Shown piece after piece: positions 34,400 through 61,073 of a DNA stretch of 64,000 nucleotides. The notes below the pieces were generated by a model. It had not been told where the DNA came from. It saw only the letters and a list, made by a program, of their open reading frames with translations, and searched no databases. The stretch is from Amoebophrya sp. A120 (lineage: Eukaryota > Protista > Dinoflagellata). Numbering within the stretch: position 1 is the stretch's first letter; each line of letters starts with the position of its first letter. The translations under genes and the position numbers were made by a program. The stretch covers positions 6,874,580-6,938,579 of the forward strand of contig CAJINV010000005.1 in assembly GCA_905178155.1 (NCBI GenBank), read 5' to 3'.

Positions 34400-34740
34400 C
34401 GTTTCGGAAGTTTTGCTCGTCATCGTTTTTTCTCGGTTCGCGTTTCGTTTGTTGACCCCGTAGTCCTCGTCGAGAGTCGTAAAAACAAGCCTCCTTCACT
34501 CATTCTTCACTGGCCTCGAGATTCCGATATCGTAGAAATTAAAATGTGTGTTCTGTGATCGTGGCCTGCTGTTGTTAGAACAAACTACCTCGTCTTCTTC
34601 ACCAGTCGTTGATAAAGAGCCATCATATAAAAAACTCGAAGTCGAGGGGAACAATACCAATGACTTGCTTTTTCCACCACGACGATGACCTATACGGTCT
34701 ACACGGCAACACACCCCGGACCTATACGGTCTACACGGAA
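34400..34740 (+). pseudogene. Diverged duplicate of the 5' region of the gene starting near 37380
   Basis: Colinear similarity with ~37080-37450, e.g. MTCFFHHDDDLYGLHGNTP versus MTCFYHHHDADLYGLDGKNTP. Confidence 0.6.
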
Positions 34741-36959: not shown

Positions 36960-37379
36960 TCGCTCATTATCGCACTCGTTCTCCGAATGGAACAAGAAAG
37001 TCAGTCGCTCTCGTTGAAGATATTTATTCGATTCTGCTATCATGATCTTTTTCTTTTCGCTTTCATCTTCACCACTAGCTCGCCCGTCATCGTTTTTTCT
37101 CGGTTCGCGCTTCGTTCTATTACTATTTTGTTGACCTCGTCGTCCTCCTCCTCGTCGTCTTCCTTGAGAGTCGTGAAAAACCCTTCCTGATTTCTCACTG
37201 GCTTCAAGATTCCGACATCGCAAATCAACAAGCACGTGTTTTATCGTGGCTTGCTCGTGCAGCTGTTAGAACATACGAGCGACATCAAGATTTTTACCAA
37301 TCGTTACAAGTACAAAAGCTGCGAAAAATTCTACAGAGCAATCACATGAAATTATACCGCGTACAACTGCGGAACAAAA

Positions 37380-40300
37380 ATGTCAATGACTTGCTTTTAC
37401 CACCACCACGACGCCGACCTATATGGTCTAGACGGCAAGAACACCCCCCTGTTCCCGGGAGACCTAGATCAGTTGGACAACAATCTTTACGGCGCTGAGC
37501 CTGGTGCATCGTCTCCCGCTGCAGTGCCTCTTGTGACAATGCACAACTCTCCCTCATCCTCACTTGTATAGCAGGAGCAGCAACAAAAGCAATGCCACAA
37601 AGGTAGCTTTTGCATGACAAATCCACAAATGGATTGCAGTCCTGTTTAACTTTAGGCGTCCAAAACTTGTCATCCGCAGAGTGCTTAAGGTCAAGAGGCG
37701 GATTGTGCGGTAGTTTGCATGACAAATAAGGGGGAAGGGGAGTTCTGCATTGTCATACCTCTGACTTATCCGGTTCCCCCCTCGGACGTGTTTTCCACGA
37801 AGACGAAAACGCCGCTGATGAATGGAAGCGGAAGTGGAAACACAACTTCAACTGCCTCTGGTGCAAATGACGACGCAATAGCAGCTCCATTCTCGACGTC
37901 CGCAAAGAAGGCGAAAAAACTGCTCGGGAGCTCGAAATTATACAACCTCATGTTCGGAGGTCGTGGAGACGAGGCTGCTTCGTCTTCTTCAACGGCAGCG
38001 AACAAGAATAAAAATCTCGGAGAGATGGACTACAAAAGCAACCCGGCTCCTTTCCGGGAATACTTCCTGAACATCCTTGGGAGCTCCGGACTGAATGAGA
38101 AAATCAGCTCGGATATCAGCCGTAAAGATCAATCGGGGTGAGGAATAATGAGTACCATCTACTACGCACGACAGCAACGCGTGGCTTCCAAGAATTGTCA
38201 TGTTGTGCTCGTCCACTTGCAAGTGTGCCAGGCATCCATTCTTCCATCCCCATCACAAGTTTCCAGAGGACCCAGATCGATATTTGCGATGCATATCCGA
38301 CGGCAACTCCGAGTCCAACACGGGGACCGCTGGTTTGTTAAACGCTTACGAGGTACTATGTAAGAAAAAAACTGTGTAGTTGTAAATCTGTGATGCAGAA
38401 CATGCAACAGAGTTACACCTGTCATGCCAGAGTGCCACGCAGTCCACTTTTCATGTTTGTTTTCCGTTAGAAGCCACGCATGACAGGTTTTCTGTTATGT
38501 AGAGCAGATCTGTGATGCTGTCAGCCCAAGAATGTTACACTAACACAGTTTTTTTCTTGGATAGGTACTCATGCAGAAAGACTCTACAGCATCCAGTAGT
38601 GCCGGCGGCGCAACAAGCGGGCAAACATCAGCTGCTTCCGCCTCGTCTTCCGTAGCTGCAAATAACCTCGACACGATAGCTGATTACAATCAATTGCCGC
38701 AGAAAAAAGACCTTTTCTGGCTGGATTTGAAACCCAAGAACAGCATTCCGACCGGGGGAGGAGGTGGGGGAGTTACCGTGGCGCAGGAGAGCAACAAATC
38801 GGTGGATCATGTCGAAATATCCTGTGAGAATGTTGCTAATCGTACTCGTATCAACTTGAATTCATTTTGCATCAAGTAGGAACGTGCGTGGCACTGGCAG
38901 ATTTATTGCGGTCTTGGTCTTGTATTCAATTATTTTACCCTAATCCGCATCTAAGAATGCATTTTTTTCATGATATTCGTATAATTTGTTCGAGTGGGTG
39001 AATGTGGAGTTTCACTAGTAAAACTAAAAAAATTTGAGGCGGGTGCTTTTGGAAAAATGCATAGCGGACTTCTAAAAAAGCAGAAAACGTCGAACAGCCT
39101 GAAGATCGCGGGTTTCTCTTATCCTGAGTAGAAACATCTCCACCCTATAATCAAGATGGGAAAACTGCTAGACAAACCTACGAACTTAGGTTGTTGCGCA
39201 TGACAAGTTTGGCCTCATATTGTAATGCTGTTTAGCTCGTTCGGAAGCATCACAAATCTAGCCTACCATGCTGATTGGAGCATCACAAACTCAAGAACAC
39301 GATTAGAAATTGCTTCTCATGGGGCTCCGCATTAGAAACATTCTGAGCATGCGTTTTTGCATTACAACTAGGGGGTGGGGCCGTTTTTACATAGGATATC
39401 TCTTGCGTGCCATTCTCCCCGCCTCGAACAAAGTGAAACAATTATCCTGAGTAAAAACGTCCCCACTCCATAGTTGTCATGCAGATTTGCATCTACAGAA
39501 ACCTTTGTAATGCGGGTCCCAATGAGAGGCATTTCTATTCGTGTTTTGGGATTTGTAATGCCGAAAATAGGATGAGCAGACGGATTTGCGATGCGGCTGT
39601 CCTTCAGAACCTGCACTACACTACGGACTGCAGCTTGTCATGCGTGGCTCCCAAAGCTTCTAGATTTGTGTTGCTAAGTTCCCAAAGTGACTATGGGGTG
39701 GGGACGTTTTTACATATGATAGCAACGCCTCGAGGAACTGGAGCTGGAGCGATTTTTAGATCTGAATTTGCAGAAGCAGAAGGGGTATGCATTGCAAAAG
39801 TAACGTACTACGTACAAATTGCATTACAAATTTGCTCAGCTTGAAGAATGGAGTTTGTCATCCTGATTTCCCTTGGGAAGCAGATTTGTCATGCATATCA
39901 TATCTGCAAGCCGTACGAGTGCGATACTTTTGCAGTTGATAAGCGGCTCGGGTCCTACGCCTACAAAGACGTCTTCAACGTGCGCGGGTGGAATTTCAGC
40001 AAGGTCGGTCTATCAACCGCAAATATGTCTGGGTCTGGAAGATAATTGTCATGCATATTTTGCATGACCCAGGATGTCTGTAATGCACGACCTAGCATCT
40101 TCACAGATTTTTAGAGAGCTTCCTGATGCCCAATCCGCACGAGAAATAATGCCCCCGCCTCCGCGTAGCAACAATGAACTGGACTCCTGTTGCTGGTCAA
40201 CATGCACTACAAATTTCCTATAGAATCCAGTGCTATCGTCCGGATTTTGAGTCCACACGAATATGCATGAAGTCATCTCCTCTGAGTCCTCAGAGCGAGA

Positions 40301-43300
40301 CTCTTTTTTTTTGGATTGTGTTTGGGCCTAGAACTAAAGAGCAGCCTTTTAAAGCCATGCGCCATGCTAAGGATGTGGTTGCACGTATGGCAGCTGCGTG
40401 TAACCGAACTGGCTAGAATGGTAGTTGTAGTTTCCTAATTTTATCAAAGCATCGGATGAAGGAGGTAGTACAGTGAAGACTAAACAGTGGAAAAGGTAGA
40501 GCGACATTGCCGAAAAACTTCAACCAGCGCCGAAAGTCTTAACGAGCTGACTCTTGGCGCTGATTTGCTGTTTCTGAACCCCGTTGCAGTGGGGGGAGGA
40601 AAACAGCAGGCAGTGTCATCCCGGGCGTCCGTTCCCCCGCAGGCGTGAATGTGAGGGACGATGTAAGTAGGAGAAATACATATCTAAACAAGGACCTGGG
40701 GGTTGTATCTCCAACTGCCAGGCGGCAACCCAGCGAGTGCAGATTCAGCGGACGCAAGCCAAACGAACACAAGAGGAGGAACGAAGTCCGAGACGGCAAG
40801 AACAGCAGCAGCCACAGCCTTCCTTCTATGCCGTTTTATGACTTCTGCATGCCTTTTGTCTGTAATTTGTATAAAAAAAAAAAAATTTCCTATAGAATCC
40901 AGACACAGCATCACAAGTATGGACGGACAAAACCTTATTAATTCCGGATTTTATAGCTATAAAAATAGCTAGATTTAACTATGCATTTTTTAAGGTCGGT
41001 TTCCGTTTGGCAGCTCCATCCCTTCGTCTTCGTTTCGTTTCTGTTTCTTTTCCTTCCGTCTCCTCATTGGTTCGGTCAGTTGCGGTCTCGATAGCAAGAG
41101 AAGAAGCTGCTATTTGATCGTCGCGTTTTCGATGTGTTCGCCGCAGAAAGATCTTGAGGCGCATGATCCTGGCGACGTGGTTTTGTTGATCTAGATCGCG
41201 CTACATGTGTTAAAGCAAGCGATCATTTGTGTGGTCTCGCACATGATGTCGCTTCACGTACTACATTGCGGTGGCGAAAGTTGATTTTCGTGGATGGCAA
41301 AAAACAAGATCTTCATTGCCAGCAGCCGAGAAAAACATATCGAGAGTTTGAAGCTATTCTGAGCTTCTACATTGACAGAATGTTTTTGAAAGTGCACAGC
41401 TCGACCCCCTTTCACATGCATTACAAAAATTACAGCAAGTAGTGAGTAGCTCTGAGCCGTGCTTCGTGGGCCTTTATGTTTTTTATTTTGCCGGTGTTCG
41501 CTTACGGATCGCTGAAAAGCAGACCACTATGAAAAAATCTTAAAGCCACAACCACAGCGCGAGTCTCGAGCTCGTGTGTGATCCACATCTCGACGTAGTT
41601 CTTATGATTTTTGTGAAGCGGCTGCTTTTCGTGTGTTGATTGGAGGGGAACGAGCAGCATTGTGACCAATTTCGTTCGTATCGTTTTGATCGTGGGGCGT
41701 CGTCGTAAATGTGTGCGTCAAAGTCGCAAGCTCATCTACTGGGTCGTCGTTCCGCAATGCCAGACTTTCAAATAAAGACTAAGTTGAAGCTCAGCTGTCG
41801 TGGTCCTCGGAGTCGATTTCGACGTGTGTGTGAAAGCATCCGTGTAGCCGTGCGCGTACAAGTAGCGACAAATCTCAGCATCGTGTCGTTGGGGGGAAGC
41901 TATCGTTGCGCAGCTGTTGGGCATCGTGAGACGTGGGCCCTGTGTTAGTGGTTTAGATTTTGACTCTGACGTGGTTTTCTCATATGTAGCCAGAAGTTTA
42001 TCAGAGATGTCAAGGGGCATCAGACTGCAATATTTGTATTAGTATTTCAGAAGCATTCTCACGCTGAATAGAAGGAAACTAAGAAGCGAAGCTCTCATCT
42101 TTGACAAGCAGTAAAATTAGTACACATCTTGATCTTTTTGATGAGCCGAAGAAAAACAAAAAGTAAAAACACCTTCCTAGTTTTCCTCCGTCTACTACTG
42201 CTTTTCTTTTCTTTCTCGGATAGAACTGCCAGAGCATCAAATGCAACAATCAATGGTCGTGATGTCCTTCCGAGGTTGTGATGAGCTGGCACCCGCTTAG
42301 GTGGGGGGTTGCGTGGTCTCTTTCGTCATTGCTGCAACTGTCGGCGGAATAGCAGCTCTTGTTCAAATTTTCCACACGTGTTGGTCCAGGATGCCACGAC
42401 GTGCAGCCGAGAAGGGCGACGGGGCAGACGCCGGGTTTTTTGGTGAACAAGTTGGCGCTTCGGGCAAACAATACTCCAACTTGCAGAGGCTTCTTGAAGC
42501 TTATTTCGACCCGAATGACAAGAACAGCAACACTACTTCCGGCGCGTTTCTGAAACGCAATAGGAAGAGCAAGATCGTTTCCCTCGTGCCAACGTCGGAT
42601 ACTTTGCGGAAGCGGTTCTCCGCGTTCAAGGCCGACCGCGTGGTCGAAGGCGAGGCAGCTTGGGAACAGTTTGTGCGAGACCAGTGTGACCGGTTCAATG
42701 CGCCGTTCGACCGCGGCGACGCTGCTACGCGGAAGATCGTCGCAAAACCCAATCCGAACGCAGCACCAGCTGCGGAAAGTGAGACAGGAGGTAGTAGTGC
42801 GTCTGGTTCGCTGGATGCTGCGCAGGACTTGGCGCTGAACCCAGAAAAGTACTTCAACAACCCCGAGAAGAAGGACAACAACTTCGAGCACCTAAAGTCG
42901 ACCCGGAAGAAGGAGTACAAGTGGTTCGCACTGGGGAAAAGTTTAGGCGGAACCGCAAAGGCGCGGAACAAGACCTTCAAAATCGCCAGCAGTGCCGGCC
43001 TCTTCTCCCGGTTCAAAAAGATTACCCAAGGGCAGGCGGAGCTACGCGTTGATCACGCGCAGCGGAGCAGTTCCAAGTCCTGCTTCAATCTCCCGCGCCG
43101 GAAGAAAAGAGTCGTCATCCACCGCCACGTTGAGGTTTCCGAGTCTGAGGCAGAGGACGAGGAGGACGATATTCTTGCCGACGAAACGATCGTGAAGAAA
43201 CAGGGCAACGGGCGGGTGCGGGTCATGCGGGAAATTGCCGAAGAGGTTGAGATAACCGACGCGGAACTTTCCGAAGATGACGCTCCTTTGGTGCTGCCCG

Positions 43301-46300
43301 ACGGTGGCGACTACAACCTGGACGACGACCAGTTCCATCATCATCGCAACCAGCTGTTCGGTGATGATGTGAAGGTAGCAGCCGGCGGCATATCGAGGAA
43401 AGCAGCAAAAATTATCGCCCAGAAAGATGAGAAGGACAGGAACAAAGAAGCGGACCAGGAGCGAAAGGAGGCAGTTCGGTCGGAGCTGAAGTATTTCGAC
43501 GCCGGACGGATTGCTGCCCGCAACCGGTTGGTTTCGTTCTTATTGTCAAGCGGCATCTCCACCGCCGGTGATGCGAAGTGTAATGGTGCTGCCCCTGGTA
43601 CGTCGAAGAACAAGAACAATAACAGCACCGCTTCCAAAATCAACAGCAGCCAGAGCGTGAACGTGGGCGGCTTCTCATCTTCTGGCGCCTTGGCACAGTT
43701 AGGGGCGGCTGTGCGCCATCTGCTGCCAGCAAGTTTTCTCGGGTCCGGTGACTTGGTATCGGGAGAGCAAAGCATTCGTGCTACTGACCACGAGTTTCTG
43801 CGAAATCAAGCGGCGCCATCCATCTCGCCTGCGGATAGTGATATGAATATGTTCGACGACTTCGACTTCGAAGCGGAGTATCTTCCCCCGGATCCACCGA
43901 CCGCGGGGTCGAGCAGCAGCTCCAGTAGTAGTTCGGGAAGCGCAGCCGTCGGCAGTTCAGCAGCACGTGGCGTGCGCGCGTCCAAGTTTACCTTGTTGAA
44001 GCAGTTGCCGAGTAAATCCGTCTTGAAGCAGGCGGAGAAAAAACAGTCTCAACCGGTGGCGGGCAAAAGCAGCAAGGCGGTAAAGAAGAAGGTGGAAACC
44101 CTGCTCCCATCCTTGAGTGGTACCTGATTTTCATTTTTAGTTTTACTTTTACATTTACTATTATACCATGTTACTTTACTTATACTTTAACTTTTACTTT
44201 GCCACGCAGTGGCAGTACCACTACGACTACCAGTAGCAGCTCTTGTTCTTCAACTTCATCTGGATCTTGGTGCCGAGCTTCATCTTCTTCGCGTTCATTG
44301 TCAGTTTCAAACTCGAGGCACTACTCGTAGTCCTATTGTGAAGCCGAGTTGCAAGTGTAGAACTAGTTTCGATCGAGATTCATACTCTATTTCTAGTAGT
44401 TCTGACTGCAGTAGTAGTTGTGTTTGTAATGCTAAACATAAATCGACCTGTGCTTGTAGTCGAAAGCGGAACTATTGAAAAAGAAAACGAAAAAAAAAGC
44501 TGAAGCAGTCATGTAATACGAATACCACCAGATGAGGAGGAGGAGCCTGCTGCCCAGGTGGACACGCAGCCGGCGAGTTCGGCTTGCGGAGACAGTGGGG
44601 ATGGCTTCGACGCCTTTTTGAACTTTGGCTTCGGCAACGATGAACAGAATAGCCAGCCGTTCGGGTCGCTCGGTCAAAACAACTTTCCTTCCACCGCCCC
44701 GGACCTGGGATCATTTGGTGATGAAAATTCGCATCGTCTGCTGCAGTCCGGCTACCTCTATGGAACGGGGGTGAAGGGGGATCTGGGTCAGGCAGAAAAC
44801 CGGCCGAAGGTGGGGATACGAATCTCCCCGGACGCGACCCCGTACGATGAAATCAAGGCCCTCAATTGCTGGGCCACACTCTACAAAAGCGACTGGTACG
44901 ACCCCATGATCGTTTACTCCCACGATACCGTTTTGCCCACCATATCCACCGGCTCCGGCCATGAAGTTTTTTTACAGGATTTGTACGAATCCGCGTGGAG
45001 CATCGGATTCCCGCTACCCGGCATGTGGTCGAAGGTGTGTCGCGTCGGTAACAAGCTGCTGAAAATGCGGCCGTCGCTCATCTGCTCATCCGACTCCGCG
45101 TCCGACGTGAAAAAAGCAGTCAAGTGCTGGGTCGAGTATGCCACCGCGCAACGCTTCTACGACCCGGACCAACGGTTGGAGGAGCCGCTCTGGAATGTGA
45201 GCTGGCTCCAGTGCCAGTTGCATCTGGCCCACATTGTCGCGAGCACATTGGTCACCTTGTGTGGATTATGCTTTGCAAAAGTATAAGTAAAGTATCGCAG
45301 TCGCACTAGTAGTAGTAGCACTAGTAGAAATCGCATGAGAAAATCAAAATTGAAACTCGCCAGCAATGATGGCGAGATTAGATTTCTCATGCTGCGTACC
45401 AACTAAAAGTTAGTTTGTCATGCTGATCAGCATCAGCATCAACATCAGCAGCGGAACTTGTGATGCATTATTTTTCTTGCGACTGCTTTTGACTTTGAGT
45501 TTGAGTTTCGTTTTGCATTTGCTTTTGCTGCGAGAGCGATACTTACTTTAGCTTTTGCTCAGCATAGCGATCGTTGCTGCGGCTGGATTTTCGCCGAACG
45601 TTATCTGCGGTCTCCAAGACGGTCAATTTGTGGATCGCCCCGCGACGGGTAGCGAACGACAGGAAAGGGACAGTCCGGGGGCAAAAAACTACTGATGAAT
45701 TGCTGGTCGAGCTGTACACCGTCGACGACGAAGAATCGAAGAGACGCTTGCACCACATGACCTCGGTGGAGCAGGAGAAATTCCACAAGGAGCGCATCGC
45801 GAGCGACCCCAAATTGCTCGCGAAGAAGAGGCTGCTGGAGACCAAGCTTCGCTCTTCGGAGTCGGTCGTGAAGCGTGTCACCGGTTTCGTTCGGACGCGC
45901 TGGCTTTCGGTGGGAAAGTGTATCACGGGGCTGTGGAGGCAGCAGGAGATCATCGTCCAAAAAGTTCTGGATAAAAGTGATGACAAGCTGCAGAAGAAGA
46001 GCCGGAAGTTTCTTAACCGGGCCAAAGCTGCCTTCGGGAAGCCTCTGTGGTGGGGCGGGCTCCGCGTGTTGAGTCTCGTCCTGATTGAGATAGACCGCGT
46101 TGCGGGCGTCGTGATGCACAGTTGCTCCAAAGAATTGGACGGTGCCAGCATACCGGATTTTGTTGACAGTTTGCCGCGGTGTCACAAGGTCGACTTGTTT
46201 CAGCGGGTTACGGATTTCCTCGTCACCATCGGCGGCATGACGGTCCGCGGTCTCGCCACAGAGGGGCTGGCGCCGGTCGCCGCGATAATGTTCTGGACCA

Positions 46301-49300
46301 TGATACAGGAGATGGACCTACGACATTCTCCCCTTCGTGCATGGCCTTACCGATTGGCGTTTCTCTTCTCGAAGGACAAAGCGGAGCGTGCGGCAACTAT
46401 TCGAGACTTGCTGGCGGCGTGCGCCACCGAGGCGAAGCGGTCGCAGATGCCACTCGAGGCACTGGAGGTTTGGAAGTTGTTCCGGTTGGAGTTGAAGCAT
46501 GTTCTCGAAGCTCTCGAGCAAGGTCGTGTCGATGTCGGGTGGAGCAAACAGTTCTGCAGAAATCTGTGTCCCGTCGTCAGGGGCTTCCTCGCTAGCAGTC
46601 AGATCGCCGAAAGTTTGAACAGCACTACTTCCTGGGTAAAGCGGGAGGCCGGCGGTCTCATCGGCATTTTGCTGGGATCCGCCCGCACCTTCTGCAGACG
46701 GGGGGCGGGAAAAGATTTGGACTTCGAGCAGTTCCTCTTCATCAACGACCACTGCCTGTCGATCAGTGCAAATATGAGAATTCGGAAGCTGCTGGAGGAG
46801 AAGGGGATCTACGGCGACCCGCTGATTTCGGACCGAAGCGACTTCTTGCTGCGAAACGAGGTCCGGCCGGAAGAGAATCCGCATCGTGTGGTTGCGGAGC
46901 TGTTTGATGTACTTGCCCGGCCTGACTGTCCCGAGGCGGCGCCTCTCGTCGGGGGTGATAAGGCGAGGGGTGGGGCCGCGCGCACAAACTACGGTGGTCA
47001 GGCCCTGAACATGAAGGTCTTCGACTTTCGGGTTAGTGACATTCTGGGAATGCCTTTGTGGAACCGCGATGGAACGCCCGTGAAGAAGATGCAGTACTAC
47101 TTCGTGCTGAAGAAAACCAAGCAGGGCGCTCTTCTGGCCGAGGTGGTGGAAGACACGGACGGGAATGCGCCGCCGGGGCATCAGCTCCGGATGTCGGTCG
47201 ATTTTGGTGTCACGGTATCCGTTTCGGAAAAAACCAAAATACGTCGTGGAGTGGAAGTGCAGGTGCTGGATTTGTCATGCAAATCTTCTCTGTCATGCAG
47301 GGCCGGATCACAAGCCTGCTCCTGCTACTAGTTTTGCATTTGAGCATCAGCATTAACATGTACATGAGCATCACCATGCTGGCTCTCATTCTGCATGAGA
47401 AGGACTAATCTCAATTTGTGACTTCAACATGAGAAGAGCTTCAACGTGAACTAATCTGCATGAGAATGACTAGTCTCATTCTGCATGAGATTGGCTTCAG
47501 CACGAGCATCAGCTTCTTCATGTACATGGGCATCACAGTGCTGGCTCTCATTCTGCATGAGAAAGACTAATCTCAGTGAATTTGTGATGCAGCATGGGCA
47601 TCCAGAGCCAAGCTGCTCGGCACAATAAAGGCAGTCTGTGATGCGGGTCGCGACAATGTAGATCTGTAATGCTAGTATTGGTGGTAGTTTGCATCTGTCA
47701 TGCGCGGAACAATAGGACTAGCACTAGTACAACTAGGCTGCGCTTTTCAACTCAAACAACAACAATTATGGACTAGAAAGCACGGCAGGTTCTTGTCATA
47801 CAAGATCAATAGCCACGCAGCACAGACGGCCCTTTATTATCTCCTCGACGTACTTTTGGTTTTCCGTGCATAGTGCTGCTGGTTTTCCGATGCAATGTCC
47901 GCGCGCTACGAGGACCAGCCGGCAAAGTATGCGAAGAAGGCGGGGGAAAAAAAAGAGCCGCAGCTTCGACCCGTCGTCCAGAACGGTTCCACGCACCTGA
48001 AGTTCTACCACATGGACACGTCGAAGAGGCAGAGGCTCTGGCACATGGCACCGTCAACCGAATATGAATCCGAGTTCTACTATCAGCACCGGGTGAACGA
48101 TCTCGGCGTCCCCGACACTGAAAATCTGCGGCTTGGCTATAAGCCGGCCAAAACCTTCCCGGATCATGATCGCATCGTCGGCAAGTGCACTGTCATGCCG
48201 TGGGCCGACATCTGTTTGTCGAAGAACGCGGAAGAGGAGAACAGGGAGTTGAGGAAGGAGAAGCGGCTGCTGCGGAACGCGCGCATCGACTCACCGACCC
48301 GGCGATCCCGCGACGAGAAGTGGGGGAAGGTGCCGCAATCTATTAGGATGCCTGAAGTCGCGGCCAATGGGCTCGGCGACCGGGTTTACGGCATCTGGCA
48401 GATAGAACAAAAACAGTGGTGGGGGTATCTTGAAAAAGCAGTTCCCTTCGACCGCAGAAACGAGGTCCGGCCTAACGGCGCACAACCAGCAGGAGCAGTA
48501 CCTGCCGCAGTCGGGATCCAACCACCACAACCATCAGGCTCGGGCGCGCATGCAGGCGCGCGTGCGCATGCAGGCGCAGGCGGGCACGTGCGCGTGCACA
48601 CACATGCACACGCGGGTGACGGGCGCGGGCGTGCACCCGCGGGTACAGGCGCGGGCGGGCAGGCGCAGGCGAGCGCGCCTGCGGGCGCACACGCAGGTAC
48701 GGGCGCACACGCAGGTACGGGCGCACACGCAGGTACGGGCGCACACGCAGGTACGGGCGCGCACGCAGGTGCGGCCGCGCGCGCAGACACGGGCGCGCAC
48801 GCAGATACGGGCGCGCGCGAGCGTGTGGGCAAGCAACGCGCGGGTGCGGACACGCGCAATGCCGCGCAGCCGGGCGACGAGCAGCAGCCTTCTGGTTCCG
48901 GAAATGCAGGCGCACAACAGCAAAATGGAGATGAAGGGGAAGATCAGCAACAGAAAAACAAAAAACCGTGTGCCGCCCGAAAGAAGTACTTCGTCGCCAA
49001 AACGCGGCAAGAATTCGTCAGGAAGATGGTAGAGTTTGAAAACGGGAAGATCTGTGAGGTGGAGCGTGCCACACCGGAACAGGAAGTAGCTGCGAGCGCC
49101 TCGCTGGCGCAATACCAGAAGGAGAACAAAGTTCTGGAGAAGAAACAGAAGGGCGAGGACATCGAGCTTGACAGCGACATGGAAAGCACATACGAAGAGA
49201 CCGATGATTCTTCCAACTTCGGATCTTCAAGTGATGACTCGGACTAATGGTGCGGGGGATGTAGCGCATAAAGCTAAAGATCAGGACTTAAAGACACAGA

Positions 49301-52300
49301 TAAAGTAGCACTACAACTACTAGCATTGAAAGTGAGTATGAATATAATAAGATTAAGAATAGTAATAGTTTTTGTTTTTGTTTTAGTTATAGTTTTCCAC
49401 TTCCTGTTCCTTATCCTTTAGCTTTACCTTTTAGCTTTAGTTATAGAAATTGAAATTGTATTTCTATTTGTAATTGTAATGGTAACTGAATACAGGTGCA
49501 GGCACAGCTACAGGCAAGGGCGCCACTTCCACTACAGAAAGAGGCGCACTTCTTTGCCGCGATGCTCTGCGCTATTTGTGTTTCATAATCGTATCAGAAT
49601 CAGAGTAAGTGCACGATGCAGATTAGCATGAAAGTAAATGTAAAACTCAGCCGCTATGTCTATTGGTATTGCTCCAGCTATTCGTTTTGGTCTTTGGTTC
49701 TGGTTTATAAATATCAATAAGAAAAAGAATAAGAAAATGAAAAAGAATAACAGTTGCGCTTCCAGTTCTACTTCTATATCTATCTCTCTTACTCTTTCTT
49801 TTTGACTTTGTATTTGTAATCGTAATGGGAATGGTAATTCTAAGTCTAATTGTAACTCCAATTCGCAATAGAAATTGAAAATGTAAAAAAAATAAATATG
49901 AGTGCGCCAGCAGGAGCGCCTACGTCATGATCATGAAGAAAAATAAAAAGCGTGATAATAGGTTTATGATTTTATCTTCGTGCTCATGGCTTATTTCACT
50001 TTTGTGTTTTGACTTTTTGTTACTGGAAGACGAAGAAAGAAACCGACTCTGGTCATTGATCTTGCTCTGTTTCGTTTCGTTTATTATCTGTATCAACTAC
50101 ATGATCGAGGAAATTAGTAACTAGAATTACGCATATTTTTGCGTGGTGAAAATGTTCCTTTCACATGTGCGCGCACCTCTTTTCATATCATAAACATCCA
50201 TGTGATCATGCAGATCATGCAGATTTGCATCTTGAATCTCAGCGCTTTCGACCGAAGTGCGATCATATTCAAGAGCATGGCGACAGAATTATCGATGTCC
50301 TCGCGCAGTGGATTAAGCAAAACCGACACCGAAATTAGTGCACAGCCCACCACTTAGCAGACAATTTGAAAAACTACACGCAGCTAATGAAGACGCTGTG
50401 AAGCGTGACGCTGAAGAGCAAAACTCTTGCATGGACAACAGAAAAGCAGCCGCTTTTTCTTGCATTGTTAATACATGTATTCCTGTACAATAGATTTTGC
50501 GCATAACAAATTGAAACATAAATCAAAAGATGCTGTGCATTCCGATTGTTAGAAGATTGGCGCTTCTAATCCGGAATGAGGTAAGGAAAGTAGAAAATCA
50601 AGTGAGTAGTGCCTGCGCTCCACTGTAAAACCAGCGCGAAGCCGAGTAATGCGTCTTGTTGTGTTCGTCGATTTTTACTCGTCAGAAGCAGTCGGAAGAA
50701 AAATAATTGTCTTCGTTGGGGTCGATGATCACGTGGCTCTCAGCACCAAAATGCCAGATACAGAGCTATCTCTTGTCAGATTCAAGGTGATGAAATGGTC
50801 GTCAGCGGTGATGGCCAAAGTGGCCATTTTTAATTTAATTGAAATTCTACTGCCGTGGAGCACTATGACAGCAAAGGACGTCTTCTACCATATTTGACCA
50901 GATCTCCTATTCTAGTGGAAAAAAGCAGTAGAAATTCAATTAAATTGAAAGTGACCATTTTCAACATCATCATCTGACGGCTCAAAGTCTTCTGATAATG
51001 TGTTGCATCTTCATCATTTTGACCGCGTTTTCACCTCAAAACCAATAGGAATTGTGAGAGAATATTTGAAAAATATATTGAAAAAAGGTGAGTCTTTCGA
51101 CGTTACGTCACACTAATCGTCCTTCGGACGATGAAGTGGGGACGTTTTGCAGTCTCGTAGACTGTGGCGAGGCAGGCGTGCCAGAGGCAGATCATATTCT
51201 GCTCCGCTTCTGCAAAAACGGTTACGACCCGAACAACATGAGCCGCACCGTGGTGAAGTTGAAACAGCACCACGTGACCAACAGTGGCCGCCACGAGTGC
51301 AGCCGTCCCATCGTGGGGGACAACTTAGCGTCTTTGCGCCACGCCGTGCGCGAGCGCGGCCGCGCCGACGGCCTGGACGGGTCTAAGATGAGTACTATTA
51401 TTTTTGTGTTTTTCATGCCTATAGTCTTCATGTATAATCCATTAGACCGTGCGCAGTTCCATAGTGTTTTGCTTGTTTCGGGTTCATCACGCATTCATAT
51501 GTAGTGAGAAACTTTGTGCATAACTACACAGAAAATGTCGCATGTTGTCGTGCATTTCTCCTTGCGAGGAGGGCAAAGCGTCTTCGTGCACAATGTTACA
51601 AGTCAGAAAAAATCTCCTCGTGCAAGCATTTTACAGCTTTCTGATTTCATGCGCGTCCACATCGTTAGTCGTACACAGAGCACGTTCGAGGTACTGCATA
51701 GCAAAAAAATGCACGTTCGATGAGCTGCGTGTCATATACAAAAAGCACGCCCACGCGCACGTTCGAACTACTGCGTGTCGTAGTCATTGTCATATGCAAA
51801 AAATAAAAATTTCTTCCATTTTCATTTTTATTTTCACTTTCAGTTTCAATCTCAATTGCTAAATAAAAATTATAAACTTCCAGGACTCGTGGCAGTCGAC
51901 TATACGGGAACTGGTCGCTTCGACTTCCAGTTCGCGTTCGTGCACGGCGGGCATACCTGCTTAGCGTTCCTGCTGGAGGGATGCGATCCGGAGCCCTTTA
52001 TTGTGGATCTGGTGCTACTAAGTCCAGACGTGGACCGCCATCCCGAGCTTTTGACCAAGTTCGTCATGCTCAAGAATAACACCCCCGAAGGGATGTGCAA
52101 CGGGTGGATCGAAACCACCGTGCTCGCCGGAAAGGTTCGCAGTTGTTGTTGTTAGATTTTATTTTCAGCCAGATGATCCTCATCTTCATCTTACATCTTA
52201 GATGATAGTTGTAGTGTTTCTTTTTGCATTGTGACCGTTTTGCATCACAAATTGAAGTTTTACTTTTACACAAACTACAAAATGAAAATCTAAAACAAAT

Positions 52301-55300
52301 ACAGTCCTGGCCCAAGTTCAACCAGTACCGCGACACGCAGGCCCGCGCGGGCAGAACCCCGGACGAGTTCGATGTGTGGATCGAACGACTTGCGGGCCCC
52401 AAATGGCGCGGGCAGCTGAAGAGTTATGGGAAGCATGCCGTGACCATGTTTAATAGAGGCGTGGTCCAAGAATACACCCATTTTGGGTTGAGCGTCAGCC
52501 AGATGGTCCCCCGCCCGAAGCACAACGATGGACACTTAAAATTCTTCGCTTACAGCAACGTACTGATTTTTTTTCCACTTCCGTTCGAGCATCATTCTGA
52601 GAGTTTTAATGTGCAAGTACATGCGCATGTTCATGACAGGCTTCAGGTTTCTCTTTCTCTTGTAGCTACACCTACATGTAGATCACATTCACTTTTGCAT
52701 ACAAAAACAAGCGCAAGCTTTGAACTTAAGCTTCAAAGTAAAGTTGCAAACTTTAATTTAAATTTTAAAAATCAAAACAGAACACCCTGTCCTCGATCAA
52801 CCCGTACACCGACACCATCATCGAGAGTGGAAATGTCCAGCTTGACATGCACTACGCCGTGAGAGTCATCCTGCAGTTCGCGGCCGGCTGCCAGGCCGAC
52901 GTCGTCCCGTGGTCTGAATATCCTTTGCAAAAGCATCACGTCCTTTCTCATAGTGAGCGGATTTTCGCATTACAAATTGCATTGCAAGTAGTTTGTGTAT
53001 CTTGCCCTGAAACTGCGTGACAGATTGCTATTCTCATGCTGCACAAGATCGTGGTTCAGCTACTGGCACTGCTAGTGCTACTGTAGCAGAGTATAGTCGT
53101 GATGCTTTTCCTTTTGTGAAGATTCATAGGACCGTCGAGGAGGACATTTTGACCATGTTGATCAAGACCAACCTGGCCCCGGCCAAAATTCCGGACCGCA
53201 GCAACGAGGCCAAGAAGTGCAGGACCAGCGAGGAGATGCAGTTGATCTTGCCCATCAAGGAGCGGAACATCAAGTCCAACGTCGTGTCCCTCTTCAAGGC
53301 GATGAAAAAGGTGAAGGACTTCTATTCCAGCAAGAAAGAGACAGGTTTGTCCGAAGAGTCGGACTTGAAAGAAGCCAGTGATCTGGAAAAGAAAGCGAAC
53401 CCCCAGTACTGGGGTTTGAACTTCCAGGGGAACTGGGTTTTGTCCAAGGAGTTCAAGCGCACCCAACAGCAGAAGGCCGACGAAGACTTCCTGCTCACCA
53501 ACGTGGCCCAGCTGATCAAGACCAAGTACAAGTTCTGTGCGGGGAACCTGGGCTCGTCCGTCCAGTGCCATGTGGTTCCGTTCGACAAGAACATCCCGAA
53601 AGCCACGCTCCTGGAGCGGCTCATGTACGTGATCGGAAGCCAGAAGGAGTCTTTGTTCATCCACAAGTTGAAGGACGCCTGCCCGAGCGACCACATCGAG
53701 CGGCTGACGGAGTGCGTGACGGACGGGACGCTGCTGCTCCCCCTCGTCCCCACCACTGCCGACCCCGCTGGAAAGGTGGACTGCTTCGAGATCGACGAAA
53801 ATGTGGACGTCTCCTTGAACTGGAAAGGAAAAGCCGCCGCAGCCGCGAAGGGCGGAAGAGCGCCCGCAGCCGGAAAAGCGAAGAAAGACAAAGCCCAGCC
53901 CGCGAACGCGAAAGCCGCGGCCGCTTCGGGAAAAGGAAAGGCTGCCTCCCCCCCGCCCGAGGCAAAAGCTGCAGCTGCGGTAGCTGCGTTGAAGAAGGTA
54001 TAGTAAATCTAAATAGCAATACAATTACAAATACTATTTCGATTATTAAATCTAAAACTAAATCATAAAGTTAAAGACAAAGACTCAAATGAAAAAGCAA
54101 AGTGTAAACTTTAGTTGAAAATCAGACTCAGTTCAACCTGAGAGAGCGAGAAGGTAGAGTCGACAAGTCGTGTAAGAGAAGTTATTTGCAACTTTGCGAA
54201 AAAATCTGTCAGATGAAGTGCGATGCTTTTGTCGAGTGGGTGTCTTGTGCTCCTGGTTTTGTATTTGAGTTTGTGTCTCTCGGTTTTTATGCGCGCATTC
54301 GCTGCGCGAATAACATCAACAAGTGCAACTGCCCGCGTGTGTGCGCGCACACCCGCGTACGTGCGGGTACGTGTGCGTGCACACGGGCGTGCGCGCGTGC
54401 GCGTACACGCATATGTGCACGCGCGCGTACGTGCACGCACGCATACGTGCACGCGCGCATACGTGCACGCGCGCATGTGTGCGCGCACGCATACGTGCGC
54501 GCATGCGTACGTGCACGCGCGCGTACGTCCGCGCACGCGTACGCACACACGCGTGCGTGGGTGCGCGCGTACGCACATGCACACGCGCGCGCACCTACGT
54601 ACGCATGCACGCACCCGCGCGCACGGATGTGTGCGCGCACATTCGCCTGTCCGCGTCTGCGAACAGGTGCGTGCGCGTACAAATGAAGTTCTTGCGTTTT
54701 TGTTGCTGCAGGCACAGACTTTTAATACCAAACCAGGAACAAAAGATTGCCACTGAAGTCACCACACTCATCTAACAGAAACTGTCAGCGATTTTGATTT
54801 TCAGTGGCGCTTCCTCAGCTGCATCACCAACATCCCAAACATAAAATACAAACAAAATCTCACAGAAGGATCCCAATGCTCCGCCGTCCCCGGTGATCGA
54901 GAACCAGCTGGGTCTGCCGGACGAGACCGCGGAGGAGAAGTTGAACCGCGATGCCAATCGCCAGCGGTTGGAAAAGGACCCCAAGAAGTGCTCTTTGGAA
55001 TACCTCTCCGGAAAACAGCCGAAAGCGATGCGCTGGTGCATGTGTGTCCCGTCCGAGTTTTCGCACTTGACCGACCCGGAATTAGATAAGCATCATGAGT
55101 TATTACACAAGTTGCGGATATTAGTGAAACCGGACAACACGATGTACGACATCGGTAAAATCGGCGACGGCGTCGACTTCTCCATCGACAAGCTCTTCTT
55201 CAACCCCAGCGAGAAGCGGTTCCAAGGAAACTGGCAGTTCCCGAAGGGTGGTCCGCAGGCCCATAGTTTGGGACTCAGGTATTTACTGTTATTTATTTTT

Positions 55301-58300
55301 TGATGTTCATCTTCATGCTACGTCAACGTCTACTAGCACTAGCACTCGCACTGCAAATCCAAGTTCAAATTTGAGCACGTGTCCAAGTACTAGTAGAAGT
55401 GCCGTTACTATTTGCATTTCGATTTCGCTTTTTGTTTTCGGATTCTTGCATGATAGGTAGATGCAGTTCCAATGTTCGCTCGATCTTCATCTTTTGCAAA
55501 CGAAATTGAAACTGAAAACCAAATCGCACTACAGTCACATCAAATATTTTTGGAAGTGCAGTGATGCTTCCAAATGTGACCGCTCCAAAATTATTTTTTG
55601 GCGGACCATTACGGAGGAGATGCCATCTTCCGCGGAGAAGAACGCCCCGATGGTGAAGATATCCTTTCAAGTCCCGCTGGAAACAGGAGTCAAGGCGCTC
55701 GGCAATAGTAAGAAACAGAAAACGCGATGCTAGAAGTGGAGAGAAGAAAGAAAGTGTAAAGAGAAGTAAAGAAGAAGAAAGAAGTAAAGTGAAGAAAAAA
55801 AAGACCCCCAGAGAAGAAAAGGGGAAAGGAAGAAAGGCATTTTTGTTTTTGGTGCTCCTCCAGGTAGTAGGCATGCAATTTTGGAACTGTTTTTTTGGCA
55901 CAGGTGCAAACACCAACTCCATCACCACAGATACAGAAGTTGATCATGAGAAAAAAAGTGAAACGCTGAAGCATCCTATTTTCGTTTTCCACATGACCAA
56001 GATATCTTCATTATCACTATTTCGTGCTTATGCATGTCTCCAAAAAAAAAATCAGGTTTTGCATCCACCGCGCAGCTTCGAATGAGACCTCCTCTGTCGT
56101 GAAGCACAAGATACCTCCGCATGAGAACTCCTCTGTCGTGAAGCATCTGTTGTAGAACGGGAAAGAGACTTGATGTAGTAATTTTGTCAATGTTACGCTA
56201 GCACTACTAGTAGCGTTGTTCTTATTTGTGTTTCGCTTTCGCTATCTAGCTTCCAAGATCAAGAAGATGAAAAAAACAAAATAACAATCAAAGCTTCTCT
56301 TATGTAAGATTAGCCTGTGGGCAGAGCTAGAAGTCGATTTGCAAGCTACCAAATTTTCACAGTTTTCCTTTGATAGTTTCACCCGTCGTGCATTTTTTGC
56401 TTCTCTAGAAACGGATTCTACTTTTTCAACTTCGCTTTTCACTTATTGGAATCAAAATTCGTATGCAGCATCACTATTATTTATTTTTATACCGTATTCT
56501 TTGCCTCAGTTTGATTTTCGCTTCCTCTATCGTGTAGTACTGAAGTATGTTCGCCTCGGTTTGATTTTCGCTTCGTAGCCGCACGTAGAATGAAGTATGT
56601 TCGCCGAGACGGGAATCGTATGAAAAGTCCCCGCTTCTACATCTAGATCTACTATGAGCTATCTTTTTGTTTTTCGACTGAGCTTTTTTTTGTCGTCGGC
56701 CTCCTTGTCCACACTGATTCTAGACATGACGCATCACAGCCAAAGCGTGTGGATTGGAGACTTGACAACAGGCGCCTTTAGTAAGAAGAAGTCGAAGTTC
56801 TACACCTGCAGTTGCTTCGTTGCGATTTTCATTTTCTCGCTTCGCTTTGCACAGACATCTACTTCCAGTTGTAGAAGGACCACACTACGTAGAAATAGAA
56901 AAGGAAAACCGTAGCGCAAATCTTAGTTATGAATAAAGATGACTCGACTGAGCTTGCACTTGTTCGAAGCTACTTTGCTCCGGTTCTTTTAGTTCAGCGA
57001 GCATCTACAACTTCAAAATTTCCTAGAAAGAAAGGAGTATTGAAACTCAAATACAAATTGTAGCTCTAGCACTGATTTGATTTTCATTTTCAACGTCCGT
57101 GACCATGTGAGTTGGAGTGTCAATATCTGCTATCTGAGCTTCTGCCGTCCTGTAGTCGCCTGGTTGCGTTTCCCGTAGTTTGCCGCATAGCGTGGCACAA
57201 CAAAGAAGTAGTACTAGCGAGCATCTACGTGCGTAGTCTCTGACTTCAGGAAGGTATGTTTGTTTATGTCAACCGGTCGCCTTGGTCGGGCAGTGTTGTA
57301 GATGTTTCGCATCTGCAGCATTGCTCAACCTAGACCCCTTATGAATGTTTCGCACTCATCATGAAAAAGAACAAGAGCTGGTATTTGGACGCTAGGTTCT
57401 ACAAATAACGTAGAGACTCAGCCTTGTTCGAAAACTGTCTCACCTCGCGTTGCGCCACTTCAGTTTCTATTTCGAAAAGAATACAAAAGTAGCAGGAGGC
57501 TTCGTCATAAAACTGGAAGAGCGTTATCGCCATGTTTGTCGCGCGCGTCTGCAAGAAGCCGTACCTGCAGTGCCGCGATTTGATTTTCATTTTCATATCT
57601 GTATAGTTCGCAGCGCTCGCAACTATGGCTGCTCATTACATTAGACTACCCCCCATCGAAGCTGTGAATTTCGTTTTCTTTTTGTGGTCAAATCAAAATT
57701 AATTTGAGATATGTTCGTAGGCTACCCAATCCGACTTCAGCACCAGCATTGACGCTTTGAGTTTGGCGCTTCCATTTGACTTTTAATTTTATTTGCAATA
57801 TACAAAACGTACTAGTAGAAGCGTTTGATTGATCCATCGTATCACCGCCGGCTGGCATCAAGGTCACATCTCTCGCTGTGGTCCTTTTTGCACTTTCGGC
57901 ATAAACCTCCTTTTTATTTGAGTGCTCCGTGTCTTTGTCACTTGCGGAGGCAACGCTTTCGATACAACTTTTGCTGCTGAGAAGGAAAGGAAGTGCATAT
58001 CGACAAAACACGAGCACAAGCTACTTGCGCTTTTAAGTGTAGTTTCATTCGCAAGATGGTTTTCAATCTGATAACCGCTTCGCCTGAATACAAGCACCGG
58101 TCATCTAGTAGCTTTGTGGTGAGTGCTATCGTGCGTGCACGTCCTCGACCGGATTGCGATCCGCGTCGGAGCGTCAGTGCCGGTATCATATTCTCACCAC
58201 CGTGAACTACTTTTAGCACTACCCCGGACGTCGACGTTTTCATTCGTCACTGCCCCCCGGCAATTTCGGAAATCACTCTGATAACCTAGTCACGCTGCGA

Positions 58301-61073
58301 GTGATGCACACTGAATGAGAACTGAGTCTGAAACTGCTTTGCTTCTACCCGAAACAACTTTCGCTCTACCCATGAAATTAAAACATGCGTGTTTGTTCCA
58401 ACATTCAAAATGAAAATAGGACGCCCACACAGCTGCAGGGCCGTCGATAGGTGCGAAGCATTACAGCAGTGTCCGTAGTGCTGCCAGTAACGGTGTTCAG
58501 GTTCTTCTCCCTTCGAGAGGTCCATTAGTTGAAATCATCATACAGAATCAGTATCAGAATAAAGATCAACAGGAAGATGACTATCATAACCAAGAGCAAC
58601 GCGTTTCATCTTCCTTGAGTTTGAGTTTCCAGATGTAGTAGCCGGCGAGAGTCGTAATATGTATCTGAGTCACCATCTCGTTCTCGATGAGTGTCGAGCT
58701 TTTCGCTTTCCTTCGTCGTCTTCTGGTTTACATGGAGCATGTGAGATGTGACGTCGGTGGATGCACCAAAAATAAAGAAGCGTGTAGCTCAGGGGCAGCA
58801 AAGAGAGAAGCACTTTCTCCGTCTGTCTCGATCCAGTGTAGATCTAGGCCCACATCCGCTTTGATTTCGTGTCCGACCTCTTCTGCCAAAAAAAAACGTC
58901 CGTGAGGAGAGGACATGGTGACGCAGTCGTCCCGCAACTTCAAGAGGACATGTTGATGCAGCCGTCCCGCAACGCTTCGGAGCTCGTCGTCGTGAGGGGA
59001 AAAACTTTCAACGATAAGTACTACTTCGGGCAGCCGCTCTGCAGCATGGTCCTCCCGTAAAACCGTGATGCATTGCCGCCCATCGCAACGTCATCCGTTC
59101 TTATGTTTTGTTATTGCTGTTTTACTTTTAGTTTTAGTTTTACTTTAGCTTGAAGCTTTCATTATTGCAGGGCTGCTTGGTCTTATGCAACATAGTAAGT
59201 CTCAACTGTGCGCATGATCTTACTGATTTTAATTTCAATTTAGTATTGGTTCTGCATGACAGCCTTGTTATCTTGGTCGACTTCCCATTCTCCAAGCTGA
59301 GAAGTAAGATGTGTCTGCAAATCGCCCTGAGCTCGTATCAACAGCAATGGCAAAAGAGAACGATCGCGGTAGCGATGGGTGGCGTTTTTGTTTTTGATAC
59401 CCGTTCGCCCCACGGTCCCGCGTACTACACGAAAGTCGCGATCCCCTACAAGTCGCGGGCAAAACGCTTCAAGTCGGAGGACTACGAAAAGTGGGAGTTG
59501 CGGGAGGATGACACCCACTGGGAGATCTATCGCATCCTGCCTGCGATTGGCGAAAAGTGGGCCAGCGTCGAGCGCGTGGTGCGGGTTCTTCAGCTTCTAC
59601 TTTAACTTTAGTCTTTTGGTAAATAAATTGCGCGCGTACCTAGTGTTCCGGTTATGTTGAGGCACTTCTACATCTGGGAGCGTCCTCGACTCTTTCGTGT
59701 ACATCTCAGACCTACAATCAAAACCACCGCAATCATTGACACAGATTCCCAAGGCGGAGTGGCCGGGGACCCCGGATGGCTGGCTGCAGCCGCTGGTCGC
59801 CGTGGCCCCGACGAAGGCCCCGACGAAGCGGAAGGCGGACACACCCGTAGCCGGGCCCGCGCGACGACGACCCCGTCGCGACGTGCCTATCTGATGACCC
59901 GCAGCTGGTTGCTTCCGCAGTCTGTCGCGATTCTGCGTCAGCTATGTCGCGCATCGCCTAAAGAAGAACAAAGACAGATGGGCGTGACGGATATGAGAGG
60001 CGAAACAGGAGATGCTAATAGATCTAGATGTGCTTTTGGTTTTGCTTTTGCACAAGTACAAGCAGACGTAGAATAGGACGGCAGAAATTGAAATCATGAA
60101 AAAGGCAGTATGAAGAACAACAAACGTAGAACCAAGACCAACGAAATGGCTTCAGATAGAACATTGTTCAGAGTTTGTATCTTCTAGGCCCTAACCCAAA
60201 TCCAAACCTACGCTCCGGGGCCGCGCAAAAGTTCCTCCTACTTATGCCCGTTTTCCAACAATTCAACAAGCCACTGAGATGATAAAAATGATCAGCGTTG
60301 CAGCGTGTAGAGACAGGTTCGAAATGAGCTCGCAGCTGTTGAGGTCGTAGCTCAAAACGCACTGAGGCAAAGACAACGGAAGACAGGCCTTTTCATTATC
60401 AAGAAGAGCTCACCGCCCTACGGATCTGCTACAGAAAGCAAGAAGAAGAATGTTCCTAACCAAGTCGCTTCCATGGCAGTAAAAGCGTGTAGAAGGGCCA
60501 AAGTGATTCGCTGTCCCAGATCACCCGGCTGACCATCATCGATCAAAATCAACAACTGATCAGCTTTATGGTAGTCACTAAAGATAATTGAAATTCTGCG
60601 AGTATGCGTCTTTTCGTTGCGGGGGAGTGGGCATCCCAATGTACATCAACACCCACTTATTCGCTTGCGTTCAATTGTTAAAATCGGTAACCGGAATACC
60701 TAGCTAGAATAAACCAAACAGATTTGCAGGCGTTAAGAGCCGAGAGTCGGTTAGATACGAAGTTCGCAATTTGGATATCAATAGTAAAATCTAGCTATTT
60801 TTATAGCTATCGAAGTCCGGAATTAAGAGGTTTTGTCCGACCATAATCACAAGTTCTTGCAACCTTCCAGCCCAAGACATATTTGCACTTACATACAGTC
60901 CGGGCTACTCCAAAACGGTAGATGGGAGCGTGACGGGCAGCAGCGGAAAACAGCTGGTAGAGCGGATCAGGAACGAAAACGAGGTGGACTTTTTGAACGT
61001 GAAAAAAAAGGACTGGGAAGAGGAAAACGGAAAGCAACTACTTTTCCCAGAAATGCACTCGAAGCACCTTTGA
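37380..61073 (+). CDS. Hypothetical host gene whose last intron (40011-60895) holds the giant transposon
   Basis: Exons separated by introners at 37532-37757, 38114-38295, 38357-38563, 39120-39398, 39443-39721 and 39786-39941. The last junction reads ...VRGWNFSKVG|PGYSKTVDGSVTGSSGKQLVERIRNENEVDFLNVKKKDWEEENGKQLLFPEMHSKHL* in frame. Confidence 0.72.
40231..40882 (+). mobile_element. Poly(A)-tailed retroposon (SINE, truncated LINE or retrocopy)
   Basis: 20-bp TSD AAATTTCCTATAGAATCCAG at 40211-40230 and 40883-40902, with an A-run immediately before the second copy. Confidence 0.85.
42391..47331 (+). CDS. Large spliced hAT-superfamily-like DDE transposase
   Basis: Exon ~42391-44119, GT-AG intron, exon 44532-45266, introner 45267-45566, then exon from ~45572; both joins are in frame. 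Motifs in hAT order: ISPDAT (D), SSDSASDVKKA (D), CQLHLAHIV (CxxH), RTRWLS (RW), SSQIAESLNS (E). Confidence 0.75.
45267..45566. mobile_element. Degenerate introner inside the transposase gene
   Basis: tatgctttgcaaaag...agtatcgc / gcgatact...cttttgctcagcata, direct repeat TGGAT/GCGAT; removal gives TLCGS|LLRLDF in frame. Confidence 0.75.
47874..49247 (+). CDS. Element-encoded ORF with GTGAHA repeats and acidic tail; may be the last exon of the transposase
   Basis: 450-aa ORF; a phase-0 AG acceptor at 47873 is compatible with phase-0 GT donors near 47215 or 47263; 18-bp tandem unit gggcgcacacgcaggtac at ~48683-48770. Confidence 0.6.
   Translation, partial: CCWFSDAMSARYEDQPAKYAKKAGEKKEPQLRPVVQNGSTHLKFYHMDTSKRQRLWHMAPSTEYESEFYYQHRVNDLGVPDTENLRLGYKPAKTFPDHDRIVGKCTVMPWADICLSKNAEEENRELRKEKRLLRNARIDSPTRRSRDEKWGKVPQSIRMPEVAANGLGDRVYGIWQIEQKQWWGYLEKAVPFDRRNEVRPNGAQPAGAVPAAVGIQPPQPSGSGAHAGARAHAGAGGHVRVHTHAHAGDGRGRAPAGTGAGGQAQASAPAGAHAGTGAHAGTGAHAGTGAHAGTGAHAGAAARADTGAHADTGARERVGKQRAGADTRNAAQPGDEQQPSGSGNAGAQQQNGDEGEDQQQKNKKPCAARKKYFVAKTRQEFVRKMVEFENGKICEVERATPEQEVAASASLAQYQKENKVLEKKQKGEDIELDSDMESTYEETDDSSNFGSSSDDSD
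51088..55733 (+). CDS. Multi-exon cargo gene of unknown function
   Basis: GC-rich exons ~51088-51391, 51884-52134, 52305-52559, 52781-52911, 53130-53997, 54865-55278 and ~55534-55733, joined by phase-compatible GT-AG introns; the first exon boundaries are the least certain. Confidence 0.65.
54333..54680. repeat. Long alternating purine-pyrimidine tract
   Basis: About 350 bp of mixed GC/GT/AC/AT alternation (gcgtgtgtgcgcgcacac...) inside a cargo-gene intron. Confidence 0.9.
58869..59894 (+). CDS. Small multi-exon cargo gene of unknown function
   Basis: GC-rich coding-like islands at ~58900-59056, ~59345-59584 and ~59745-59894 with GT/AG borders; basic C-terminus KRK...RRRPRR. Confidence 0.45.

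Follow-up and report, generated by a model that had tools for sequence, protein, structure and literature searches.

A probable divergent hAT transposon of 19.9 kb, with its own predicted transposase and partner gene, nested in an introner of Amoebophrya sp. A120

Introduction

Transposons of the hAT superfamily, represented by Hermes, Ac and Tam3 and by the ZBED1-like and DUF659 groups, combine an 8-bp target site duplication (TSD) and terminal inverted repeats (TIRs) with a transposase that carries the residues D, D, CxxH, (T)RW and E in this order and at a characteristic spacing, and that contains a helical insertion domain. An N-terminal BED zinc finger is common in hAT transposases, though not universal, and excision by hAT transposases leaves hairpins on the DNA that flanks the element. 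In Hermes the motif glutamate is E572, which lies about 253 residues beyond the motif tryptophan, W319. W319 is given in PMC5225508, together with W401 and E419 of the MULE Muta1, which are 18 residues apart; MULEs share CxxH and W with hATs and generate TSDs of 8–9 bp. The TIRs of hATs are quoted as 5–27 bp (PMC12506042).

A few described elements come close to the locus reported here. TET+ hAT7 and other two-gene fungal transposons (PMC12730594) likewise pair a hAT transposase with a non-transposase gene; hAT7 has a 7-bp TSD and a TET/JBP gene, and the hAT7-1_PGr consensus is 9,592 characters long, whereas the present element has an 8-bp TSD, about twice that size and a partner gene without a family match. 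ToxhAT/ToxTA is a 14-kb TIR element with several genes that was formerly called hAT; it has a TA TSD, is non-autonomous and has been reclassified (PMC12506042), and on these grounds we rejected it as a precedent for a giant hAT. Polinton/Maverick, Teratorn and Starship are also large multi-gene mobile elements, while the predicted protein at our locus is of the DDE type and not a tyrosine recombinase.

Amoebophrya genomes are known for introners (PMC7789003, PMC12130899), which number in the tens of thousands and whose published flanking repeats are 3–5 nt long. Two putative transposases were reported in strain A25 and none in A120, and a general transposase-mediated spread of introners was ruled out in the same work (PMC7789003). 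In the Karlodinium-infecting strain no DNA transposons were found (PMC12005148); 12 transposon domain families were listed for AT5.2 (PMC6482013), so that transposons as such are known there. Here we describe an element of A120 that agrees with the hATs named above in its TSD, TIRs, motif order and spacing and, on a model of a relative, in its helical insertion domain. It differs from them in its length of 19.9 kb, in a predicted 1842-aa transposase with neither a Pfam hAT match nor a detected BED finger, in 65-nt TIRs with TATGG ends, and in two further genes, one of them conserved.

Results

The window, i.e., the whole stretch of DNA analysed, comprises 64,000 nucleotides of the A120 assembly, and all positions refer to it. 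The element and its surroundings are made up as follows.

40012..60896, + strand: host introner, a predicted host-gene intron, 277 nt once restored, with the 5-nt repeat CGGTC/CAGTC
40231..40902, + strand: poly(A)-tailed repeat fragment, distinct from the element but inserted in its introner; 20-bp duplication at 40211-40230 and 40883-40902
40910..40917, strand not applicable: left copy of the 8-bp TSD, ATCACAAG
40918..60845: element, 19.9 kb, bounded by 65-nt inverted repeats
40918..40982, + strand: left TIR, starting with TATGG and holding a perfect 16-nt palindrome at 40949-40964
60781..60845, - strand: right TIR, ending with CCATA
60846..60853, strand not applicable: right copy of the 8-bp TSD, ATCACAAG

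An initial annotation made from the letters of the sequence had claimed 65-bp inverted repeats 19.9 kb apart with TA...TA ends, an exact 8-bp flanking duplication and a position within an introner. Alignment of the two ends bears out the repeats, which are 82% identical without and 89% with gaps, agree in 17 of their 18 outermost nucleotides and run from TATGG to CCATA; the duplication is exact as well. Two random positions of the window share an 8-mer with a chance of 4.2e-5. As part of the introner motif, ATCACAAG is present 13 times in the window. Collinearity with sister introners is the stronger test. When the element and one ATCACAAG were removed, together with the poly(A)-tailed insert and its 20-bp duplication, a 277-nt introner was restored, of which at least 265 nt aligned to six sister introners of the window at 67–71% identity. 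The claimed location was therefore confirmed, and the restored introner indicates three nested layers: the introner, a retro-type fragment and the large element. Across the 5-nt repeat of the introner the flanking host exons are predicted to join in frame, and the last exon of the host gene is predicted to end at about 61073. An open frame at 40564-40941 was rejected as a host exon, since it falls inside the poly(A)-tailed insert; diverged copies of this fragment are present in the public runs X1, X7 and X8.

The element is 43% coding, and Rfam gave no match anywhere in 39000-62000. An inverted repeat of 45 nt (82%) at 50800-50979, upstream of gene 2, may be a promoter structure or a small non-autonomous element. 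CG/CA-rich tandem repeats occur with an 18-nt unit (AHAGTG-coding) in exon 4 of gene 1 (48640-48830) and with a 16-nt unit in intron 5 of gene 2 (54330-54650). Outside the element, similar non-coding stretches at 34380-34720 and 37080-37440, about 2.7 kb apart and recognised by eye, suggest a local duplication. An introner-rich downstream gene at 61700-64000 contains the motifs INDVY, LGNHEFD and GGHDH, which we take to be metallophosphoesterase/5'-nucleotidase-like; its single exons gave no Pfam match.

The largest gene of the element is predicted to encode the transposase.

42391..49247, + strand: gene 1, predicted hAT-like transposase, 1842 aa, spliced reading frame open
42391-44119, 44532-45262, 45568-47262 and 47874-49247, + strand: predicted exons 1 to 4 of gene 1
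45263..45567, + strand: predicted introner-derived non-canonical intron of gene 1, between CxxH and TRW, where the homologs are unbroken

The motif residues are D677, D764, C804xxH807, W932 and E1168. A HMMER scan of 1.84 billion representative proteins with exon 3 gave three matches at E up to 1e-3, namely P0001 (1278 aa, Logan), P0002 (848 aa, Logan) and P0003 (2480 aa, Amoebophrya AT5.2 g13352). P0001 covers exons 2 and 3 in one continuous reading frame (E 2e-47 among three sequences), and because P0001, and also P0002, are unbroken across the junction, the join of exons 2 and 3 is independently supported. Exon 4 has a motif that recurs in P0003 (z 12.8); in P0002 its signal is weak (z 3.2). 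An alignment of the window protein with its relatives (A2) revealed conserved xDATP, SDxxSD, CQxH, TRW and xES. All of D, D, CxxH, W and E are found in the window protein and in P0001, while P0002 has CxxH, W and E, and the gene model of P0003 is without the E; the distance from W to E is 236 residues in the window protein, 233 in P0001 and 232 in P0002. The spliced reading frame with D, D, CxxH, RW and E proposed in the initial annotation thus holds on the predicted splice sites, being open over 1842 aa with motifs conserved in relatives. On these alignments, the predicted transposase lineage is present in relatives, one of them from Amoebophrya AT5.2.

Word-based homolog searches with exon 3, with exon 2 (against longer proteins) and with alignment A2 gave no match, and no relatives of exon 2 were found in metagenome and viral contigs. 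The 30 metagenome matches to the 18-nt end pattern were all discarded as chance, as 6–22 of the 47 further bases matched and neither blastn nor tblastn gave a match.

Downstream of the transposase gene, two further genes are predicted.

51082..55733, + strand: gene 2, probable conserved partner, about 800 aa, seven predicted exons, start not fixed
52918..53129, + strand: probable introner-derived intron of gene 2; use of a second possible donor, at 52954, would likewise keep the frame
58953..59896, + strand: gene 3, about 190 aa, three predicted exons, orphan

Both predicted multi-exon frames are open, in line with the claim of at least two more multi-exon genes. Third-position GC content (GC3) is 0.76 in gene 2 and 0.77 in gene 3, as compared with 0.26–0.53 in 15 stop-free gap frames of at least 80 aa. 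Neither gene gave a family match (Pfam, PHROGs, NCBIfam). Gene 2 matched designed PPR proteins over 28 residues, which we treated as a repeat artefact, and a stretch near its N-terminus may resemble ParB/Srx-type motifs. When gene 2 was compared with the C-terminal part of P0003, 22% identity was obtained over 487 columns (z 34 against 100 shuffles). P0003 therefore holds, in one AT5.2 gene model, the transposase region, the motif of the last exon of gene 1 and the gene 2 homolog, in this order; either the transposase and its partner were fused by the gene predictor or they are truly one gene in AT5.2.

That genes 2 and 3 might be host genes captured by an ordinary hAT (Pack-type cargo) is suggested by their multiple exons, by their high, host-like GC3 and, for gene 3, by the lack of a match to P0001–P0003. 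We consider this origin unlikely. Although gene 2 and its homolog share only 22% identity, the order of transposase and partner is the same in AT5.2, which argues for long co-inheritance; within the element, introner-end motifs are rare (3, or 0.15 per kb, versus 61, or 1.38 per kb, outside); and nine of the 11 predicted introns in the genes of the element are GT-AG, the other two being probably introner-derived, unlike what a recently captured host block would have. With its homolog placed immediately after the transposase in AT5.2, gene 2 is likelier to be a conserved partner than a captured host gene, and a conserved part of the element rather than fresh cargo. From the initial annotation, the giant element with a gene set of its own is retained (19.9 kb, three predicted genes), and the term cargo is not, in view of the position of the gene 2 homolog in AT5.2.

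For the structural comparison, a core model was built on the relative P0001 rather than on the window protein, from a 5-sequence alignment (pLDDT 49.7). Among 48,161 chains, this low-confidence model matched Hermes (8edg_A) first, with Z 11.3 as compared with 8.4 for the next chain, rmsd 3.6 and 164 aligned residues, Z values below 13 being common for helical models. The alignment begins at model residue 158, the C of CQLH, opposite residue 265 of Hermes, and spans Hermes 265-432 with CxxH in register; it comprises the helical insertion domain only, as the RNase H core is mostly below pLDDT 50 and lies outside the aligned part. Foldseek gave no match with the P0001 core model, and Hermes was absent from the top 50 matches of a single-sequence model of window exon 3 (pLDDT 41). 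In Atlas, nine of the ten best named matches of the P0001 core belong to the family or clan of the top one, a hAT cluster; the scores (0.83–0.85) are leads only and point toward hAT C-terminal dimerisation, DUF659 and ZBED1 RNase-like families. Window exon 3 met a hAT cluster at rank 24, and KDZ was not among the Atlas matches listed.

Sequence profiles were silent. With hmmscan no exon or homolog matched Pfam at cut-off, hAT families and the KDZ domain included; PHROGs and NCBIfam gave no match at cut-off for exons or homologs; PDB sequence searches returned nothing meaningful and no match to Hermes; and in exon 1 neither a Pfam match for a BED finger nor a C2H2-type pattern was found. Among hAT traits, the locus has the 8-bp TSD (one insertion), TIRs, the D-D-E triad with CxxH and RW and, in the low-confidence model of the relative P0001, a Hermes-like helical insertion domain. 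Based on motifs, the Hermes match and the Atlas neighbours together, the gene 1 product is likely hAT-type, in line with the hAT-like transposase of the initial annotation, which had also named Hermes as the structure to compare.

It is rather unlikely, in our judgement, that the element is a real DNA transposon of another superfamily (IS3EU, Zisupton/KDZ or MULE), or of a new sister group that is hAT-like in action. IS3EU, compared here by its description in PMC12730594, has TAYGG...CCRTA termini and TIRs longer than 30 bp, and the TATGG...CCATA ends of the element fit both, but the IS3EU TSD is 6 bp and ours is 8 bp. A TSD of 8 bp is also made by Zisupton/KDZ and Dileera elements (PMC12730594), and MULEs approach the locus through CxxH, W and their TSD length, yet the W of the element and its relatives is 232–236 residues ahead of the E, far from the 18 residues of Muta1, where W stands close before E. 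No hAT profile gives a score, and Hermes could top the ranking merely because few structures have been solved in related groups; on the other side, the protein has the TRW motif, and hAT families account for most of the top named clusters among the Atlas matches listed. Scans for simple motifs revealed no Walker A, pPolB or ATPase motifs, in agreement with the absence of pPolB, packaging ATPase and capsid motifs noted initially; there was no Pfam or PHROG match to the Polinton genes (pPolB, packaging ATPase, capsid) and no viral match.

The shared TAT ends raise the question of how the element relates to introners. In the window we counted 71 TAT[CG]...[CG]ATA pairs, compared with 1–9 in five shuffles. 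Among 36 outermost introner candidates, the 5-nt flanking repeat is perfect in 18 and has at most one mismatch in 27, and a repeat of 6–9 nt was found in 0 of 36. A mismatch in the 5-nt repeat often creates the acceptor AG, and several introner families are represented. The introner ends (TAT, seven bases, a run of A) fit those of A120 introners as described in PMC7789003. Introners in the window are 105–330 nt long and non-coding, with 5-bp repeats, whereas the element is 19.9 kb long and coding, with an 8-bp TSD; TAT-starting inverted ends are common to both. One introner is the insertion target of the element and two probably sit within its genes.

A tempting reading is that this transposase, or a close paralog, mobilises the host introners. 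Both have TAT[CG]...[CG]ATA ends, and on an introner-end matrix the two ends of the element score above shuffled sites (0.4% and 1.4% of 499 shuffled TAT[CG] sites score as high). Furthermore, hAT lineages with a 5-bp TSD exist (hAT5; PMC12730594), A120 has no transposase according to PMC7789003, and in the supplement of PMC12130899 most of the 40 A120 introner families examined, out of 58, are labelled 'TIR DNA, Unknown'. We nevertheless regard it as quite unlikely. The similarity is weak beyond TAT[CG], with scores of 3.4 and 1.3, far under the introner median of 14.1; the same supplement offers a competing mobiliser, A120 fam38, labelled Ginger, '5-bp TSD, TA/TA termini'; and the TSD lengths differ. 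Because of its 8-bp TSD, as compared with the 5 bp of introners, the element is probably not their direct mobiliser. Another A120 introner family, fam135 (supplement 8 of PMC12130899), has an 18.8-kb alignment and hAT5/hAT6 terminus matches and is classed there as non-LTR/Unknown.

Public contigs were used to examine the assembly and the number of copies. Contigs of run X1 cover 30 of 30 bins of 40880-60879. The left junction is bridged by an X3 contig (40737-40964) and the right one by an X7 contig (60785-60879), each with at least 31 letters on both sides, which confirms both junctions of the initial annotation; no single public contig spans the whole element. That the structure stems from misassembly, or from repeats paired by chance, is very improbable: 80 sites differ from X1 contigs, 53 of them with T in the window, which suggests a collapsed or ambiguous assembly, and no contig is continuous over the element, but both junctions are bridged, the target restores to a normal introner and the exon order is that of the homologs. 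At these 53 sites X1 has A, C or G, and the left flank has little such bias; ambiguity codes may have been stored as T. Of 13 T-biased sites that were checked, 10 are in gene 1, all of them missense and at codon positions 1–2, with no effect on stops or catalytic residues.

The initial annotation had also looked to further TIR copies and to an empty site. A second right end was recovered in a 140-nt X7 contig, in which the end of the element is followed by a different flank beginning TGATTGGT, and again in X8; the left flank of this second copy and its TSD were not among the contig matches listed. No empty-site joint was seen in public contigs, searched with 34–38 nt of flank per side (contigs drop rare variants), and the X1 contig over the junction is unbroken. 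The X1 contig of the element starts exactly at 40918, as fits a convergence of different left flanks. Its depth is 33.3 versus 17.5 for the junction contig, a weak hint of extra copies, given that depth is not copy number. One X1 contig departs from the window at 46351, in exon 3 of gene 1, into at least 255 unrelated letters, so that another copy is possibly interrupted by an insertion. Taken together, these observations hint at two or a few copies. Contigs of X7, which we guess to be RNA, are confined to the final ~310 nt of the element (60537-60879) and enter the flank at two loci; they could represent an outward-reading transcript and are uninformative for the expression of the genes of the element.

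Discussion

Our preferred reading, to which we give a probability of roughly 78%, is that the locus is a divergent hAT cut-and-paste transposon inserted in an introner, with its own transposase and a conserved partner predicted, and that it likely has two or a few copies. That the element is autonomous and recently inserted, as the initial annotation proposed, is plausible. The two predicted introner-derived introns in its genes imply that the family is old in the lineage, even if the insertion is young.

By analogy with Hermes, the gene 1 product would bind the 65-nt ends and excise the element, and insertion would proceed with an 8-bp stagger at the target. What makes the element so large would be the great length of its low-complexity transposase, together with introns, spacers and two additional genes, rather than a block of captured host genes. 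With its two predicted introner-derived introns, the element would depend on the non-canonical splicing of the host. Insertion into a pre-existing intron would leave the host gene unharmed only as long as the resulting 20.9-kb intron can be spliced out. We tentatively suggest, as one possibility among others, that gene 2 is a helper of the element's own transposition, e.g., through DNA binding across ends 20 kb apart. A far-reaching extension is doubtful: that the element founds a Syndiniales-wide lineage of giant two-gene hATs invisible to scans, with 5-bp-TSD relatives that drive introners, which in turn colonised the transposase gene.

We found no description of the element in the openly accessible literature searched, which included passages of PMC7789003, PMC12130899, PMC12730594, PMC5225508, PMC12506042, PMC6431247, PMC9587614, PMC12005148 and PMC6482013. 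It is likely a new hAT-type transposon, from a genus in which earlier scans had turned up few transposases or none. A transposase that is invisible to Pfam and has a relative in AT5.2 suggests that negative scans can miss whole families, and alignment A2 provides a probe with which the transposase question can be asked anew. For the superfamily, the range of hATs appears to be extended to elements of about 20 kb with a conserved partner of no known family.
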